From Alphaproteobacteria bacterium (lineage in GTDB: Bacteria > Pseudomonadota > Alphaproteobacteria > Bin95), in the NCBI GenBank assembly GCA_965200785.1, contig CBDAVA010000003.1:2470205-2534204 (forward strand): a stretch of 64,000 bases of DNA. The letters are read 5' to 3'. Each line of letters begins with the position of its first letter. Position 1 is the first letter of the stretch. The notes under the pieces were generated by a model. That model was not told the origin of the DNA and did not search any database. It worked only from the letters and a program-made list of their open reading frames with translations. Below, one piece after another: positions 22,123 through 62,925 of this stretch. Made by a program: the position numbers and the translations under genes.

Positions 22123-22498
22123 GGCGGGCCGTGTCTCAGTTCGCAACGAAGGCCCGTGCTGGCGGGTTTTTCGGAACGCGCCTCCCTGCCGCGCCGCTTC
22201 TATCGCCTCCCTAGTCGTCACCCCAGCCGGGGAGCGCATGTCCTCTTGTCACCCCGGCCGGAGCGCAGCGGAGAGCCGGGGTCCATCCTCCGCCGTTTCG
22301 GCCCTGCGGAAGGATCGGAGGCTGGGCCCCGGCTCAAGGCCGGGGCGACAGCAAGGGGGCCGGGGCGACAGTAGAGGTGTCCGGGCGACAACAGGGGGTC
22401 CGGGGCGGCACCGGGGCGTTCGGGGCGGCGGGCCGGGCCTCTCGTGCCCCTGGCTCAATCTGCCAAAGGAACGCGAATGTCAAACGGAGACACGACCT
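22123..22498. repeat. MITE-like mosaic repeat, full copy B (~375 bp)
   Basis: Imperfect terminal inverted repeats CCGTGTCTCAGTTCGCAACG ... CAAACGGAGACACGAC. Modules A (GGCGGGTTTTTCGGAAC), B (GGGGTCCATCCTCCGCCGTTTCGGCCCTGCGGAAGGATCGGAGGCTGGGCCCCGG), C (GGGGCGACAG short tandems) and D. Confidence 0.8.
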
Positions 22499-31974: not shown

Positions 31975-32262
31975 CGGGTCGTGTCTCAGTGTGACATTCG
32001 CGTTTCTCTGGCAGAGTCAGCCAGGGGCTTGAGAGGCCCGGCCCCCCGCTCCGAACGCCCCGGCGCCTCCCCGGACTCCCGGGCACCGCCTCGGACCCCC
32101 TGTTGTCGCCCCGGACCCCCTACTGTCGCCCCGGCGCTCCGCTCTGCTCCGGCCGGGGTGACGAAGGGGAGGCGATACAAGCGGCGCGGTTCGGAGGCGC
32201 GGTCCGAAAAACCCGCCAGCACGGGCCTTCGTTGCAAACTGAGACACGACCCTCTTCCGCCT
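31975..32262. repeat. MITE-like mosaic repeat, copy C (inverted relative to copy B)
   Basis: GTCGTGTCTCAGTGTGACATTCGCG ... GCCTTCGTTGCAAACTGAGACACGAC. Same modules as copy B in reverse orientation. Confidence 0.8.
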
Positions 32263-42329: not shown

Positions 42330-42602
42330 ATGACCCCGGAGATGATCGCCATACTGGCCGTTGGCGTCGCGCTGGCCGGGCTCATCCTGCAAGGACAGCG
42401 CGGGCTTGGTGCCCGTATGGACCGGTTCGATGCCCGTATGGACCGGATGGACGCCCGTATGGATCGGTTGGAGGCCCGCATGGAGCGGTTCGAAGCGAAA
42501 TTGCGGGAAATCCGCGACCGTCTGAGCCGGCTTGAGGGCAAGATGGACTTCCTGGAAGGCTATATCGTCCGCCGCAACGAGTTCGGCGCGCCGGCTGAAT
42601 AG
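42330..42602 (+). CDS. small N-terminal-TM coiled-coil protein, copy 1 (90 aa; 4 ARMDRxx heptads)
   Basis: MTPEMIAILAVGVALAGLILQGQRGLG + ARMDRFD ARMDRMD ARMDRLE ARMERFE + AKLREIRDRLSRLEGKMDFLEGYIVRRNEFGAPAE. GGGAG RBS. Confidence 0.75.
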   Translation: MTPEMIAILAVGVALAGLILQGQRGLGARMDRFDARMDRMDARMDRLEARMERFEAKLREIRDRLSRLEGKMDFLEGYIVRRNEFGAPAE

Positions 42603-42707
42603 CAGACCCCGCCGGAAGCGCGGACCTGCCGGCGAGGCCCTTGATTGCAGGCGGAGGAGTCAGCACTATGGCCGCCAGGTGGCCGGATGCTGCCAGGGAG
42701 AGTCGTG

Positions 42708-42917
42708 ATGACCCCGGAGATGATCGCCATACTGGCCGTTGGCGTCGCGCTGGCCGGGCTCATCCTGCAAGGACAGCGCGGGCTTGGCGCCCGTATGGAG
42801 CGGTTCGAAATGGAATTGCGGGAAATCCGCGACCGTCTGAGCCGGCTTGAGGGCAAGATGGACTTCCTGGAAGGCTATATCGTCCGCCGCAACGAGTTCG
42901 GCGCGCCAGCCGAATAG
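42708..42917 (+). CDS. small N-terminal-TM coiled-coil protein, copy 2 (69 aa; 1 heptad)
   Basis: Identical N- and C-terminal portions. Only ARMERFE before the LREIR segment. Confidence 0.75.
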   Translation: MTPEMIAILAVGVALAGLILQGQRGLGARMERFEMELREIRDRLSRLEGKMDFLEGYIVRRNEFGAPAE

Positions 42918-43022
42918 CAGACCCCGCCGGGAGCGCGGACCTGCCGGCGAGGCGCTTGATTGCAGGCGGGGGAGCCAGCACTATGGCCGCTAGGTGGCCG
43001 GGTGCCGCCAGGGAGGGCCGGG

Positions 43023-43253
43023 ATGACCCCAGAGATGATCGCCATACTGGCCGTTGGCGTCACGCTGGCCGGGCTGATCCTGCAAGGACAGCGCGGGCTT
43101 GGAGCCCGTATCGACCGGCTGGAAGCCCGCATGGAGCGGTTCGAAGCGAAATTGCGGGAAATTCGCGACCGTCTGAGCCGGCTTGAGGGCAAGATGGACT
43201 TCCTGGAAGGCTATATCGTCCGCCGCAACGAGTTCGGCGCGCCGGCCGAATAG
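43023..43253 (+). CDS. small N-terminal-TM coiled-coil protein, copy 3 (76 aa; 2 heptads)
   Basis: ARIDRLE ARMERFE then the conserved tail. Confidence 0.75.
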   Translation: MTPEMIAILAVGVTLAGLILQGQRGLGARIDRLEARMERFEAKLREIRDRLSRLEGKMDFLEGYIVRRNEFGAPAE

Positions 43254-43358
43254 CAGACCCCGCCGGAAGCGCGGACCTGCCGGCGAGGCCCTTGATTGCG
43301 GGCGGGGGAGTCAGCACTATGACCGCCAGGCGGCCGGGTGCCGCCAGGGAGGGCCGTG

Positions 43359-43610
43359 ATGACCCCGGAGATGATCGCCATACTGGCCGTTGGCGTCGCG
43401 CTGGCCGGGCTCATCCTGCAAGGACAGCGCGGGCTTGGCGCCCGTATCGACCGGCTGGAGGCCCGTATGGACCGGCTGGACGCCCGCATGGACCGGTTCG
43501 AGGCGGAATTGCGGGAAATCCGCGACCGTCTGAGCCGGCTTGAGGGCAAGATGGACTTCCTGGAAGGTTATATCGTCCGCCGCAACGAGTTCGGCGCGCC
43601 GGCCGAATAG
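43359..43610 (+). CDS. small N-terminal-TM coiled-coil protein, copy 4 (83 aa; 3 heptads)
   Basis: ARIDRLE ARMDRLD ARMDRFE then the conserved tail. Confidence 0.75.
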   Translation: MTPEMIAILAVGVALAGLILQGQRGLGARIDRLEARMDRLDARMDRFEAELREIRDRLSRLEGKMDFLEGYIVRRNEFGAPAE

Positions 43611-43653
43611 CAGACCCCGCCGGGAGCGCGGACCGGCGGCGCCCCGGCGTCAG

Positions 43654-47257: not shown

Positions 47258-48649
47258 ATGGAAGCCTCGATCGCCTCATTCGCCTATCTGGTTGCGGCAA
47301 TCTGCTTCATCCTCGGCATTCGCGGCCTGGCCTCGCCGGAAACGGCGCGCCGGGGCAACTGGATCGCCATCGCCGGCATGGTCATCGCCATCGGCGCCAC
47401 CCTGCTGCGCCCGCAAATCGCGACCTTCGAGCTTGTGTTGGGCGGCATTGTCATCGGCGGCGCCGTGGGCACGGTCATCGCGCTCAAGGTCAAGATCACC
47501 AACCTGCCGCAGCTTGTGGCGATCTTCAACAGCCTGGTCGGCCTTGCTGCGGTGCTGATCGCGGCCGCCGCCCTGGAGAGCCCCAGCCTCTACGGCATTC
47601 CGCTCACAGACGGGCTGGCCACCAGCAGCCTGGTCGAGATCATGGCCTCGACCGCCATCGGCGCCGTCACCTTCACCGGGTCGGTGGTCGCCTATGCCAA
47701 ACTGCAAGGGCTGATGCCCAGCGCGCCGATCATGTTCACCGGCCAGCGGGCGGTCAATGCGTTTGTCGGGTTGATCGTCATCATGCTGGCGCTCGCATTT
47801 TCCGGCTGGGGCACGGACGGGCTGTTCTGGGCGCTGGCGCTCGCGGCGCTGATCTGGGGCGCGCTGGTGGTCCTCCCGATCGGGGGGGCGGACATGCCGG
47901 TCGTCATCTCGGTGCTCAACTCGGCGTCCGGCTGGGCCTCCTGCGGCATCGGCTTCACGCTCGACAACCCGTTGATGATCATTACCGGGGCGCTGGTCGG
48001 CGCTTCCGGCGCCATCCTTTCCTACATCATGTGCAAGGGCATGAACCGGTCTCTCGCGCATGTGCTGCTGGGCGGCTTCGGCGGCGAGACGGAGGGGCCG
48101 TCCGGAGAGGCCGCAGACCGCGGACCGGTCAAGGCCGGCAATGCCGACGACGCGGCCTTCATGCTGCGCAATGCCGGCTCGGTGGTCATCGTGCCCGGAT
48201 ACGGCATGGCTGTGGCCCAGGCCCAGCACGCGCTGCGCGAGATGGTCGATCTCCTGGAGGCCGAAGGCGTGCGGGTGCGCTTCGCCATCCATCCGGTCGC
48301 CGGGCGGATGCCGGGGCATATGAATGTGCTGCTGGCGGAAGCCAATGTCCCCTATGACAAGGTCGTCGAGATGGAGACCGTCAACCGGGACTTCCCCTCG
48401 ACCGATATCGCCTTCGTCATCGGCGCCAACGACATCACCAACCCTTCGGCGCGCACCGATGCGTCCAGCCCGATCTACGGTATGCCCGTGCTGGAAGTGG
48501 ACCGGGCGAGGATGGTCATGTTCGTCAAGAGGTCGATGGCGAGCGGCTATGCCGGCGTCGATAATCCGCTGTTCTTCAACGAAAACACGATGATGCTGTT
48601 CGGCGATGCCAAGGCAATGTGCGAAGGCGTCATCAAATCCCTGGAATAG
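47258..48649 (+). CDS. pntB: NAD(P) transhydrogenase subunit beta
   Basis: 463 aa. N-terminal TM domain. C-terminal NADP(H)-binding dIII (VPGYGMAVAQAQH). Confidence 0.95.
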   Translation: MEASIASFAYLVAAICFILGIRGLASPETARRGNWIAIAGMVIAIGATLLRPQIATFELVLGGIVIGGAVGTVIALKVKITNLPQLVAIFNSLVGLAAVLIAAAALESPSLYGIPLTDGLATSSLVEIMASTAIGAVTFTGSVVAYAKLQGLMPSAPIMFTGQRAVNAFVGLIVIMLALAFSGWGTDGLFWALALAALIWGALVVLPIGGADMPVVISVLNSASGWASCGIGFTLDNPLMIITGALVGASGAILSYIMCKGMNRSLAHVLLGGFGGETEGPSGEAADRGPVKAGNADDAAFMLRNAGSVVIVPGYGMAVAQAQHALREMVDLLEAEGVRVRFAIHPVAGRMPGHMNVLLAEANVPYDKVVEMETVNRDFPSTDIAFVIGANDITNPSARTDASSPIYGMPVLEVDRARMVMFVKRSMASGYAGVDNPLFFNENTMMLFGDAKAMCEGVIKSLE

Positions 48650-50738: not shown

Positions 50739-52184
50739 TCAGAAGTTGATCTTGATGCCGGTCACGAAGCCAGTGCCGTCGGCACCCGTGGAGTCATCCT
50801 CGGCCTGGAAGATCGAGGTTCTCGACGCGACGCCCGGCGCCAGCGTGTAGCGGAATGACGCCATCACCGCTTCGGCGTTCATACCACTCGCGCGATCCCT
50901 GACGATGTAACTGAGGCTGGCGTCCATCGGACCGTTCGAATACATCGCGCCTACGTTCACAACATCGGAGTCGGCTGAAGGCTCTTCCACAATCCTTGAC
51001 CACAGAATATCGTTGCTCGGGTCGTTATTGTCCCTCGATTCCCTTATCTCGTCACTCGTAGAATCATCGTCATGGTCCCACATATGAGGCATTCCATCCC
51101 CATCGGAGTCGTAAGTGTCTCCATCATCAATCCTTATCCGGCGGAGGAAGTCGACGTCATAGCTTCTGGGTTGGTCATACATCGCGTAGGCTACATTGAA
51201 GCTGAACGCTCCGAAACCAACCGTGAGGCCCGCATTGGTGACGGTTTCATCATCCGTCGCCGTCATGACGGTCTCTCGGGCTGCCATCAACGCATCCTGG
51301 GCCCTGCGTGCATGCACCCGAAGCAGATCAAGGTTATTGATCTCGCCTCCTATGACTTCTCCCAGCGTGCCCAGCTGGTGTGAAACTCTCCTGAGTTGTG
51401 CAAGCTCTCCCTGCTTCCGGGGCATCTCTGCCATGTTCTCCCAAGCATCCCAGTTGCCTGTATGCGCCAGATACTGTGCAACGGTAAGCCCCCCATCACT
51501 CAGCTCCATGAAGGGCATGATGGTGTGTTCCGTCATCTCGCTGCTGCTTTTGACATAGTGGCCGACGGAGAAGCTGACGCTGGCGTCGCCGACTGCCTGC
51601 TCGACATTCAGGGCGACAGACCAGGCGTTATCGTCATTATCCATCGGTGCGCTGGTGCTCGCTTCGGTTCCCGTTTCCGGGGTATAGGTCACACCGAATT
51701 GCACGCCGGAAATGCGCGGCGAGTAGTAGGAAATCTTCCTGTCGTCAGAGGGCCAGCCGGCGGTTCCGCCAACGTCGATATCGCTGATCCAGTTTCCGAC
51801 ATCTCCGTGGTTCAGCCCGATGCCGACATCCATGCCGCCAACATGCATCGTCGCAAGCACATCATTATCGGCGCCGAGCTGAATCCGGCCGAAGGAGCCA
51901 CCGATTGTCATTCGCGACTCGTCGATATTGCCGTCGCCATTGCCCTCAACCTGGATCGTGACGCCGAATGTGAGGCCATTATCGGCTTCAAGCGAGCCGT
52001 TGACGTAGAACTCGCTGTCCGACTGCTGGGAGAACCCGCTGCCGTCCATCGAGTTGGCCATGCCGACCCACTGTTCCATGTATCCGCTAAGGCTGGCGCT
52101 CAGCTGTTCTTGGGCGCTGGCGGCGCCGGCGGCCATGGCGCCCGCGAAGGCAAGGGCGGTTGTTGCGAGGAGGGTTTTCTTCAT
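50739..52184 (-). CDS. outer-membrane porin (Gram-negative porin family) with large internal low-GC insertion
   Basis: Signal peptide MKKTLLATTALAFAGAMAAGAASAQ. Alternating amphipathic beta-strands. C-terminal ...GFVTGIKINF. GC ~58% with a ~52% central segment. Confidence 0.8.
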   Translation of the reverse strand: MKKTLLATTALAFAGAMAAGAASAQEQLSASLSGYMEQWVGMANSMDGSGFSQQSDSEFYVNGSLEADNGLTFGVTIQVEGNGDGNIDESRMTIGGSFGRIQLGADNDVLATMHVGGMDVGIGLNHGDVGNWISDIDVGGTAGWPSDDRKISYYSPRISGVQFGVTYTPETGTEASTSAPMDNDDNAWSVALNVEQAVGDASVSFSVGHYVKSSSEMTEHTIMPFMELSDGGLTVAQYLAHTGNWDAWENMAEMPRKQGELAQLRRVSHQLGTLGEVIGGEINNLDLLRVHARRAQDALMAARETVMTATDDETVTNAGLTVGFGAFSFNVAYAMYDQPRSYDVDFLRRIRIDDGDTYDSDGDGMPHMWDHDDDSTSDEIRESRDNNDPSNDILWSRIVEEPSADSDVVNVGAMYSNGPMDASLSYIVRDRASGMNAEAVMASFRYTLAPGVASRTSIFQAEDDSTGADGTGFVTGIKINF

Positions 52185-52251
52185 TGTTCCCTGTCATCCC
52201 GTTGTTGGTTTTGCGCGCTGGTGCGGCGGATCCACTTCAGCGCGTGACGGA

Positions 52252-52278
52252 ACCATAGACGGGGGGGGGGGGGGTCAA
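52252..52278 (-). promoter_or_regulatory. sigma70-like promoter of the porin gene with homopolymeric spacer
   Basis: On the minus strand: TTGACC (-35) followed by 12 more C of a C14 run plus GTC = 15-nt spacer, then TATGGT (-10), ~70 nt upstream of the ATG (RBS AGGGAA). Confidence 0.55.
52261..52274. repeat. G14/C14 homopolymeric tract
   Basis: 14 consecutive G on the plus strand, overlapping the -35 and forming the spacer of the porin promoter. Confidence 0.95.
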
Positions 52279-52364
52279 TGAAAAACAGGACTTTGAGTGT
52301 AGAAAACCAGCGCCTGTTGCATCCATGCAACAGATACGGCGCGTGACAGGGCCGGCGGTTCGGC

Positions 52365-52415
52365 TGGCGCAGGCGGGGCCGGTGGAGAGAAAGACCCCTC
52401 TCCCCGGCCCTCCCC
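52365..52415. repeat. REP-like element (family 2), left copy flanking the IS5 element
   Basis: CTGGCGCAGGCGGGGCCGGTGGAGAGAAAGACCCCTCTCCCCGGCCCTCCCC. Identical ~50 bp recurs at 53811-53866. Confidence 0.8.
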
Positions 52416-53618
52416 CTTCAGGATTCTTCTGCGAAAGGGATGTTTTTGGGTTATGGCGGTGTATTGGGGGGGCTTTTGGGGGTTGGGCGGGGGCGATTGA
52501 GGGGCGCGCGCCGGTGTTGTTGGGCGATGGCGTGTCGGCGTCGACCGTTTGGCAGCGGGATAGGGGTGTCAGGCGCCCGCAATCAGGCAGGCCCGGCGCA
52601 GATTGTAGGCGGCGACGGTGACATAGAGGCGGGCGGTGTTGCGCTCCAGAGACCGGCTCTTGGCCCGCCTCAGACCGTAGAGACGCTTCAAGGCCGAGAA
52701 GACGGCTTCCACCGGCGCCCGGCGTCTGGCAATCAGATCGTTGCGGCGCTTCCGCCAGGCCGGCAGCGCCTCTATGTGCTTGTGCCGCCGGTGCATGATG
52801 CGGTCCTTGATGCCGGCGGCCTTGAACCTGGCCCGTCTGGCCTTGTGCTCATACGCACGGTCGCCATAGACCGCCGCCTCGTCGCCGCAGATCAACTGCT
52901 CCGCGACCGTGCTCTCCCAGATCTTGGCTGACGTCAGCACCACACGCCGGATCAGACCCGAACCCGCATCCACACCGATATGCACCTTGTAACCGAAGAA
53001 CGCCTTGCCCTTCTTCTTCGTCCAGTCCGCACCCGGCTCGCGCGCGCTCCTGGTCCCTGCTCCCGCCTTGTAAGACGGCGCCCGGGAAGCCGCAGATACC
53101 AGCGTGGCGTCCATTAGCGTGCCCTTGCGCAGGATCAGACCGGCAGCATCAAGCTGGCGGGTGATCTCCTCAAACGCCGCCTTCAACACAGGCCCCGCAT
53201 CCGACCGAAACCGGCACAACGTCGTCTCGTCCGGCGTGCCCCCGTCCAGCGCAAAACCGCAAAAACGCCGGAACGAAAGGCGGTCAAGAAGCGCCTCCTC
53301 AAGGCCAGGGTCAGAAAGATCATAAAGCGCCTGAAGATACAGCGCCTTCAGCATCGACAGCGGCGCATAGGGAGGACGACCCCGACGACCCTCGCGCACA
53401 CCACACACAAGGCGCTCCAGAGGCACCCAGTCAATCAATGCCTCCAGACGTTCCAGCTTCCGGTTCGAACCAAGACCCGAAGACACAAAGGCGTCCGTAA
53501 ACCCCAACTGACCCGGCGCGCGCATCGACACAACCTCCCCTGCCTCACCGCAATGAATCACAGATAACCAAATCCGCAAACCAACATTTCGCAGAGGAAT
53601 CCTGCAGGGAGAGGGAGG
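52414..53618 (-). mobile_element. IS5-family insertion sequence (~1.2 kb)
   Basis: Terminal inverted repeats CAGGATTCTTCTGCGAAA (52416-) and the reverse complement CAGGATTCCTCTGCGAAATG (ending 53618). Single transposase ORF. Confidence 0.8.
52569..53525 (-). CDS. IS5-family DDE transposase
   Basis: MRAPGQLGFTDAFV... Typical IS5 N-terminus. DDE region (YGDRAY, E...LK.L). Confidence 0.85.
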   Translation of the reverse strand: MRAPGQLGFTDAFVSSGLGSNRKLERLEALIDWVPLERLVCGVREGRRGRPPYAPLSMLKALYLQALYDLSDPGLEEALLDRLSFRRFCGFALDGGTPDETTLCRFRSDAGPVLKAAFEEITRQLDAAGLILRKGTLMDATLVSAASRAPSYKAGAGTRSAREPGADWTKKKGKAFFGYKVHIGVDAGSGLIRRVVLTSAKIWESTVAEQLICGDEAAVYGDRAYEHKARRARFKAAGIKDRIMHRRHKHIEALPAWRKRRNDLIARRRAPVEAVFSALKRLYGLRRAKSRSLERNTARLYVTVAAYNLRRACLIAGA

Positions 53619-53639: not shown

Positions 53640-53800
53640 CCCCCGACCGGCGCGCCCCCTCCTGCCACCCCGGATGGAGCGAAGCGGAAATCCGGGGTCC
53701 ATCCTCCGCCCTTTCGGCCCCGCGGAAAGATCGGAGGCTGGGTCCCGGATCAAGGCCGGGGCGACAGTAAGGGGGGCCGGGGCGACAGTAGGGGAGGCTG
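53640..53800. repeat. MITE-like mosaic repeat, truncated copy E (modules B+C)
   Basis: CACCCCGGATGGAGCGAAGCGGAAATCCGGGGTCCATCCTCCGCCCTTTCGGCCCCGCGGAAAGATCGGAGGCTGGGTCCCGG...GGGGCGACAGTA... Confidence 0.75.
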
Positions 53801-53810
53801 GGACGGCGGG

Positions 53811-53890
53811 GCAGCTGGCGCAGGCGGGGCCGGTGGAGAGAAAGACCCCTCTCCCCGGCCCTCCCCCTGCGGGGGAGGGAGGAGGAAGCG
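53811..53890. repeat. REP-like element (family 2), right copy (complete palindrome)
   Basis: ...CCCCTCTCCCCGGCCCTCCCCCTGCGGGGGAGGGAGG. Contains the CCCTCCCCC/GGGGGAGGG inverted repeat. Confidence 0.8.
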
Positions 53891-62504: not shown

Positions 62505-62925
62505 GAGTCCAAATGTTAAACTGAGACATTACCAAGTGCTGGCGGGTTTTTCGGAACACGCCTCCGTGCCGCAGCGCTTGGATCGCCTCCCTTGTCGTCA
62601 CCCCGGCCGGAGCAGAGCGCAGAGCCGGGGTCCATCCTCCGCCGCTTCGGCCTTGCGGAAGAATCGGAGGCTGGGCCCCGGCTCAGGGGCGGGGCGACAG
62701 TAGGGGGCCGGCGCGGCAGTAGGAGGTCCGCGGCGGCAACAGGGGGTCCGGGGCGGCGCCCGGGGGATCCGGGGCGGCGCCGGGGCGTTCGGAACGCGCC
62801 TCCGTGCCGCGCCGCTTACACCGCCTCCCTTTTGTCACCCCGGCCGGAGCGCAGCGCAGAGCCGGGGTCCATCCTCCGCCGTTTCGGCCCTGCGGAAGGA
62901 TCGGAGGCTGGGCCCCGATGGTGTG
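62505..62925. repeat. MITE-like mosaic repeat, copy F with internal duplication of modules A-B, interrupted at its right side by an IS110-family element
   Basis: GTTAAACTGAGACATTACCAAGTGCTGGCGGGTTTTTCGGAAC..., module B twice, ending ...GGAGGCTGGGCCCCG|ATGGTGTGG where similarity to other copies stops. Confidence 0.75.

Follow-up and report, generated by a model that had tools for sequence, protein, structure and literature searches.

Repeat-driven promoter switches are textbook devices of a few host-adapted pathogens, Neisseria, Haemophilus, Bordetella and Mycoplasma among them, and to our knowledge repeat-based phase variation has hardly been described in non-pathogenic bacteria of high GC content. 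A pure G/C run of 14-15 is mutationally unstable in a bacterial genome, and such tracts when neutral should gain interruptions or shrink. In Bordetella the fim promoters are activator dependent and the C-stretch links the activator site to the −10 box. The porA promoter of Neisseria meningitidis carries a poly-G tract between its −35 and −10 elements, expression being high with 11 G's, 2-fold lower with 10 and 13-fold lower with 9 (PMC3639595), and the promoter of opc is described as containing a poly-cytidine stretch (Sarkari 1994, cited in PMC5084427). The C-stretch in the promoters of Bordetella fim2, fim3 and fimX counts 7-22 C's, differs among paralogs and species and sets the transcript level (PMC1891110). 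For Treponema pallidum, accounts of the tpr genes place poly-G tracts upstream of paralogous putative outer-membrane protein genes (PMC7864442, PMC3656149).

The promoter considered here belongs to an uncultured alphaproteobacterium and lies in a window of 64 kb (67.4% GC), by which is meant the whole stretch of DNA that was analysed. A run of fourteen G's on the plus strand (52261-52274), which is C14 in the sense of the porin gene, sits 77-90 nt 5′ of the porin ATG (52184) and within TTGACC-(C12 GTC)-TATGGT, the minus strand around it reading cat-TTGACC-CCCCCCCCCCCC-GTC-TATGGT-tcc. The first two C's of the run complete a −35-like hexamer TTGACC (52278-52273, minus strand), a 5/6 match to TTGACA, and the other twelve make up most of a 15-nt spacer (C12 + GTC, 52272-52258) that ends at a −10-like hexamer TATGGT (52257-52252) keeping the A at position 2 and the T at position 6. 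These coordinates agree with an earlier note on this DNA, which had described a 15-nt spacer and a C14 run overlapping the −35. Its statement that a run of 14 is far beyond chance also holds, as base composition would give about 0.01 runs of 14 or more G's in the 64 kb and the same number for C, and a census of all homopolymers found 14 to be the greatest length in the window and no other run above 7; the runners-up are two G7 runs (47882-47888 and 52466-52472), and not runs of 6 as had been said.

Transcription would start at A52245, 7 nt past the −10 box, which gives a putative 5′ UTR of about 61 nt (52185-52245, minus strand) with a Shine-Dalgarno-like motif AGGGA at 52188-52192. No Rfam family was matched anywhere in the window, and so there is no known riboswitch or leader in the porin 5′ UTR. 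On its upstream side the −35 box is abutted by a T-rich stretch TTTTTCA (52279-52285, minus strand), which is possibly an UP-like element and which reads TTTTCAA and TTTTCGA at two related promoters, L005 and L017, described below.

In its general design the window promoter is like those of porA and opc in that a G/C homopolymer forms the −35/−10 spacer of a porin or outer-membrane protein promoter, with single-nucleotide steps in length that carry the spacing through its optimum and so grade expression in the Neisseria case. The tract here is longer than that of porA, at 14-15 as against 9-11 residues, and takes in part of the −35 hexamer. Where porA and opc belong to a betaproteobacterial human pathogen, this promoter is from an uncultured alphaproteobacterium of 67% GC, and the window porin has no close sequence relationship to PorA; the likeness is one of sequence layout. 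The fim promoters of Bordetella pertussis and Bordetella bronchiseptica share with this locus a poly-C tract of similar length in the promoters of paralogous surface-protein genes; here too the tract is found at several paralogs and a conserved motif lies upstream, but the −35 box here is near consensus, and the regulated genes are porins rather than fimbrial subunits. With the tpr genes of T. pallidum the shared feature is poly-G upstream of paralogous putative outer-membrane protein genes, whereas phylum and protein family differ. The design is one already known from porA/opc, and what is new is the uncultured 67% GC alphaproteobacterial host, a longer tract that overlaps the −35 and a porin family of many paralogs. 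The analogy to porA/opc, drawn in the earlier note for what it called a candidate control of transcription, is apt. The proposed architecture is strengthened by the poly-C spacer recurring in two porin promoters of another genome (OY730441.1).

The gene downstream (50739-52184, minus strand) encodes a porin of 481 amino acids with a match to Pfam Porin_4 (E=9e-33). Its AlphaFold model is of moderate confidence (pLDDT 66.8) and finds as fold matches the 16-stranded general porins, including Vibrio cholerae OmpT and OmpU, Neisseria PorB, Omp32 and the Rhodobacter porins; sequence identity to porins of solved structure was about 10-13% in this search. The window porin is a singleton in the protein collection, and at least seven paralogs at 46-51% identity are encoded on the same 3.43-Mb source contig, making a family of at least eight. 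Comparison of eight porins of the one genome (the window porin with P0002-P0005, P0007, P0008 and P0010) showed signal peptides that are 90% identical and barrel segments at 62-67%, while identity falls to 19% in an insert at aa 211-315 and to 16% in another at aa 341-395. In the model both inserts fall between strands, in segments that are partly helical and of low confidence. A partly helical fold is predicted for the first; the second is acidic and rich in D (DSDGDGMPHMWDHDDD). Hypervariable inserts set in a conserved barrel form a pattern typical of diversifying selection on exposed parts, and the Porin_4 match, the porin fold and the at least eight paralogs with such inserts together identify the gene behind the poly-C promoter as one for a surface protein. 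At one related locus (L015, about 2501-2545) there is an in-frame stop near the porin N-terminus (…GVGGYM*QWI), and this porin may be a pseudogene or reflect a sequencing error.

A profile of the porin family, applied to one genome per species, gave 67 porin loci, almost all of them in MAGs of uncultured alphaproteobacteria, and with five fetched later the comparison set came to 72 loci and 378 kb. Only four G/C runs of at least 10 are present in these 378 kb, and all four are of at least 12 and sit in porin-upstream intergenic DNA. From composition the whole set would be expected to contain 0.46 runs of 12 or more and 0.045 of 14 or more. At L005 the sequence is ATTGA-C15-GTCTATGGT and at L017 it is ATTGA-C14-GTCTATGGT, in each case 72 nt 5′ of a porin ATG. 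These two loci hold different porin paralogs of one alphaproteobacterial genome (OY730441.1, 4.59 Mb), of another species than that of the window. Tracts of C14, C15 and C14 at the window, L005 and L017 are all uninterrupted and longer than the about 8-9 G/C residues taken as the minimum for frequent slippage, and both the sequence and the homology place them between the two hexamers. The promoter core is identical to that of the window at 28/29 positions in L005 and 28/28 in L017. Elsewhere the loci have diverged: the stretch from an upstream palindrome to the core agrees at 19/35 (L005) and 18/35 (L017) positions, the 5′ UTR at 34/67 for window against L005/L017, the flanks overall at about 51-54%, and the porin proteins are 41-43% identical to the window porin. 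Nucleotide homology of the window with both loci starts exactly at the palindrome. Since the core tract is retained while the flanks have diverged to about 50%, a long uninterrupted tract has been kept, and three tracts that are pure and long across such flanks are not what would be expected of a neutral and mutationally unstable run.

Six homologous porin promoters (L008, L009, L019, L020, L024 and L135) have no homopolymer, and their alignment with the window takes in the palindrome, the T-run and the 5′ UTR. At the position of the window hexamers each has a TTGTGC, TTGCGC or TTGTAT and, after a spacer of exactly 16 nt, a TATGCT, TATCGT or TATGGT, and this conservation of TTG...TAT boxes supports the assignment of TTGACC and TATGGT as −35 and −10, which the earlier note had made from the window. 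By this alignment 16 nt is the normal −35/−10 spacing of the porin promoter family. The six manage with ordinary spacers, and so the poly-C sequence is not needed for promoter function. With C15 the spacer at L005 is 16 nt, and with C14 those at L017 and the window are 15 nt. The sigma-70 promoter scanner used here requires a spacer of 16-18 nt; it calls a sigma-70-type promoter at L005 and none at L017 or at the window tract, where the hexamers score 9/12 with a 15-nt spacer. An ECF-sigma promoter of the form GGAAC...CGT(C/T) was considered and set aside, as GGAAC is missing from any suitable distance and what is conserved among the homologs is TTG and TAT..T. Overall the tract site is very probably a porin promoter with a poly-C spacer.

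Wider searches gave little more. The more distant porin homolog loci L134-L138 carry no tract. A metagenome scan for TTGAC-C(>=7)...GTCTATG returned 66 matches, none with an adjoining porin by tblastn and all but one (L110) with runs of only 7-10 C's, and the 66 were judged to be chance matches rather than further switch promoters, being without a porin and short in their runs. A stricter pattern had 0 matches in viral contigs, and look-ups for independent assemblies of L005 and L017 gave only the same contig.

We think it rather probable that the porin promoter is a slippage-driven contingency switch of the porA/opc type. As proposed, the promoter would be of sigma-70 type with an uninterrupted poly-C tract as its −35/−10 spacer, and slipped-strand mispairing at replication would add or remove single C's, so that the spacing of the hexamers would shift in steps of 1 bp, from 15 nt with C14 to 16 nt with C15 and 17 nt with C16. 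Upstream elements would likewise come to lie farther from or nearer to the −10 box as C's are gained or lost. One porin paralog would in this way be expressed at a high or a low level or not at all, stochastically, heritably and reversibly, and the window allele as assembled, which at 15 nt lacks one C of the canonical spacing, is expected to be weak. Avoidance of phages that use the porin as receptor, host recognition, or both may be the selective agent. The tract lengths found, one consensus each across paralogs and species, straddle the canonical spacing as would a switch caught in different states, although a one-base error in a long-read consensus would look alike, and the difference of 14 versus 15 between paralogous loci of one long-read MAG could be such a homopolymer error. 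Near-equal lengths of 14, 14 and 15 across species also fit an element of fixed length.

The conserved porin cassette is bounded upstream by the palindrome TGTTGCATGGATGCAACA (52315-52332, minus strand), which lies inside a longer hairpin followed by a T-run (52303-52306), the whole spanning 52303-52334; a scanner lists hairpin and T-run as terminator-like, and the element could be a terminator-like insulator, an operator, or both. In the form TGTTGC-N6-GCAACA it occurs once in the 64-kb window and is invariant, but for a 6-nt centre that varies, in 21 of the 72 porin-related loci (L003, L005-L012, L014, L016, L017, L019, L020, L023, L024, L028, L037 and L134-L136), about 0.02 occurrences being expected by chance. 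Usually it lies 35-46 nt 5′ of the porin −35 box (36 nt in the window), and sometimes it sits downstream of a porin gene. Between it and the −10 box there are 57 nt at five loci (window, L005, L008, L020 and L135), 56 nt at L017, 60 nt at three others and, with 11 nt more than the commonest value, 68 nt at a further two. As the 57 nt are preserved in the window although its spacer is of 15 nt, an on or off state is not readable from the sequence. At L005 and L017 a 13-bp hairpin with a T-run after it is built around the palindrome and resembles a good intrinsic terminator.

That the tract is simply a fixed GC-rich spacer of a working or weak promoter, expanded once for example from a CCCC seed, with length changes that are rare or of no consequence and so with no adaptive switching, is a rather unlikely reading that the nearly equal lengths at three loci of two species nevertheless favour, as do the homologous spacers of L019, L024 and L135, which end in CCCCG(T/G) and so offer a seed for neutral expansion. 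The same three copies are pure at about 50% flank divergence, however, when runs of this kind are in general unstable, and a non-repetitive spacer suffices in the six homologs. A poly-G artefact or a collapsed region in sequencing or assembly is hardly credible as the source of the run. Homopolymers are the main class of long-read consensus error and the exact length may be off by one, but the tract is embedded in promoter sequence that is intact and alignable on both sides, and it stands at the same promoter position twice in OY730441.1, the genome of a different species that was assembled independently; this recurrence essentially excludes an artefact.

More mechanistic alternatives keep the tract as functional and change what its length does. 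With a switch of the Bordetella fim type, the C tract would act as an adjustable linker that sets distance and helical phase between the palindrome, as activator site, and the −10 box, and the precedent of the Bordetella C-stretch (PMC1891110) lends it some appeal. The palindrome core is invariant, its spacing to the −10 is 57 nt in five loci and one helical turn more in the two at 68 nt, and a divergent small HTH_1 gene found at many of the paralogs could supply the regulator. Distances of 60 nt occur too, however, the palindrome is also found downstream of porin genes and resembles an intrinsic terminator in L005 and L017, and the good −35 hexamer TTGACC is unlike what activator-dependent fim promoters have, which leaves a fim-type linker distinctly improbable. 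It is more doubtful still, and indeed highly improbable, that the run acts irrespective of its length through an unusual DNA structure (a G-quadruplex, an i-motif or rigid poly(dG).poly(dC)) that affects promoter opening: a template strand with 14-15 G's in a row might in principle fold into a G-quadruplex whose loops are of 1 nt, but the homologous promoters work with ordinary spacers, and the idea is in any case compatible with slippage.

Poly-C tracts are also found at small genes near other porin paralogs in related genomes. L014 (genome OZ244041.1) has G28 at 1984-2011, which is C28 in the sense of a small gene and lies 17 nt 5′ of its ATG, and L034 has G12 at 2141-2152, or C12 in the same sense, 39 nt 5′ of the ATG. 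The positions are homologous in the two species, and the small gene, of about 130 aa and divergent from another porin paralog, shows a LysR-type N-terminal sequence only (judged by eye), as do the Pfam HTH_1 genes beside the porins of L134 and L138. The contrast of C28 with C12 attests directly to change in the length of poly-C tracts beside porins of this clade over evolutionary time, and the two tracts suggest a broader system of several loci. A multi-locus contingency system in an uncultured marine alphaproteobacterial clade, with porin paralogs individually switched by poly-C spacers and HTH_1 regulators preceded by poly-C too, is put forward tentatively, as a possibility on the doubtful side. 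Were it so, stochastic variation of surface or phage-receptor proteins would be operating in high-GC bacteria that are non-pathogenic and possibly host associated; the related MAGs are possibly sponge associated, to judge by their isolate labels, a literature search on habitat having returned nothing useful.

For the window promoter itself, a slippage-driven switch would extend the repeat-switch strategy to environmental or symbiotic bacteria, here an uncultured alphaproteobacterial lineage of 67% GC, and would flag porins as targets of strong fluctuating selection by phage or through host recognition. Tract-length heterogeneity would then be a directly testable marker in metagenomic reads, and the expression state of such genes would not be one that a consensus assembly allows to be read.

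Upstream of the porin cassette, about 90 nt from the palindrome and outside the promoter, lies an IS5-family element (about 52421-53602, minus strand) with a transposase (NF033581, 52569-53579) and imperfect terminal inverted repeats. A hybrid promoter made by this IS5 element was considered and rejected, as the cassette is unbroken from palindrome to ATG and has homologs at loci that carry no IS. One end of the element is abutted by a 74-nt REP-like hairpin repeat (52349-52422), a second copy of which, 92% identical, is at 53800-53873, about 200 nt past the other IS end.

A compact palindrome, G(T/C)GTTGCAAC(A/G)(C/A), stands in the 5′ UTR of porin paralogs that lack a poly-C promoter, some 25-40 nt ahead of the ATG, and was found at L008 376-387, L019 2470-2481, L020 1088-1099, L024 2143-2154, L009 2460-2471 and, in both L012 and L023, 2462-2473; it is not in any of the three poly-C promoters (window, L005 and L017). 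Dispersed through the window, at 22338-22429, 32087-32134, 53753-53802 and 62686-62787, is a family of short arrays in which a unit of 20-21 nt (GGCCGGGGCGACAGTAAGGG and variants) is repeated in tandem, and units of CTGTCGCCCCGG resembling them stand upstream of a porin in L028. A large tandem repeat at 42474-43641, with a period of 315-336 nt, about 3 copies at 88-90% identity and internal 21-nt repeats, is probably a repetitive coding region.
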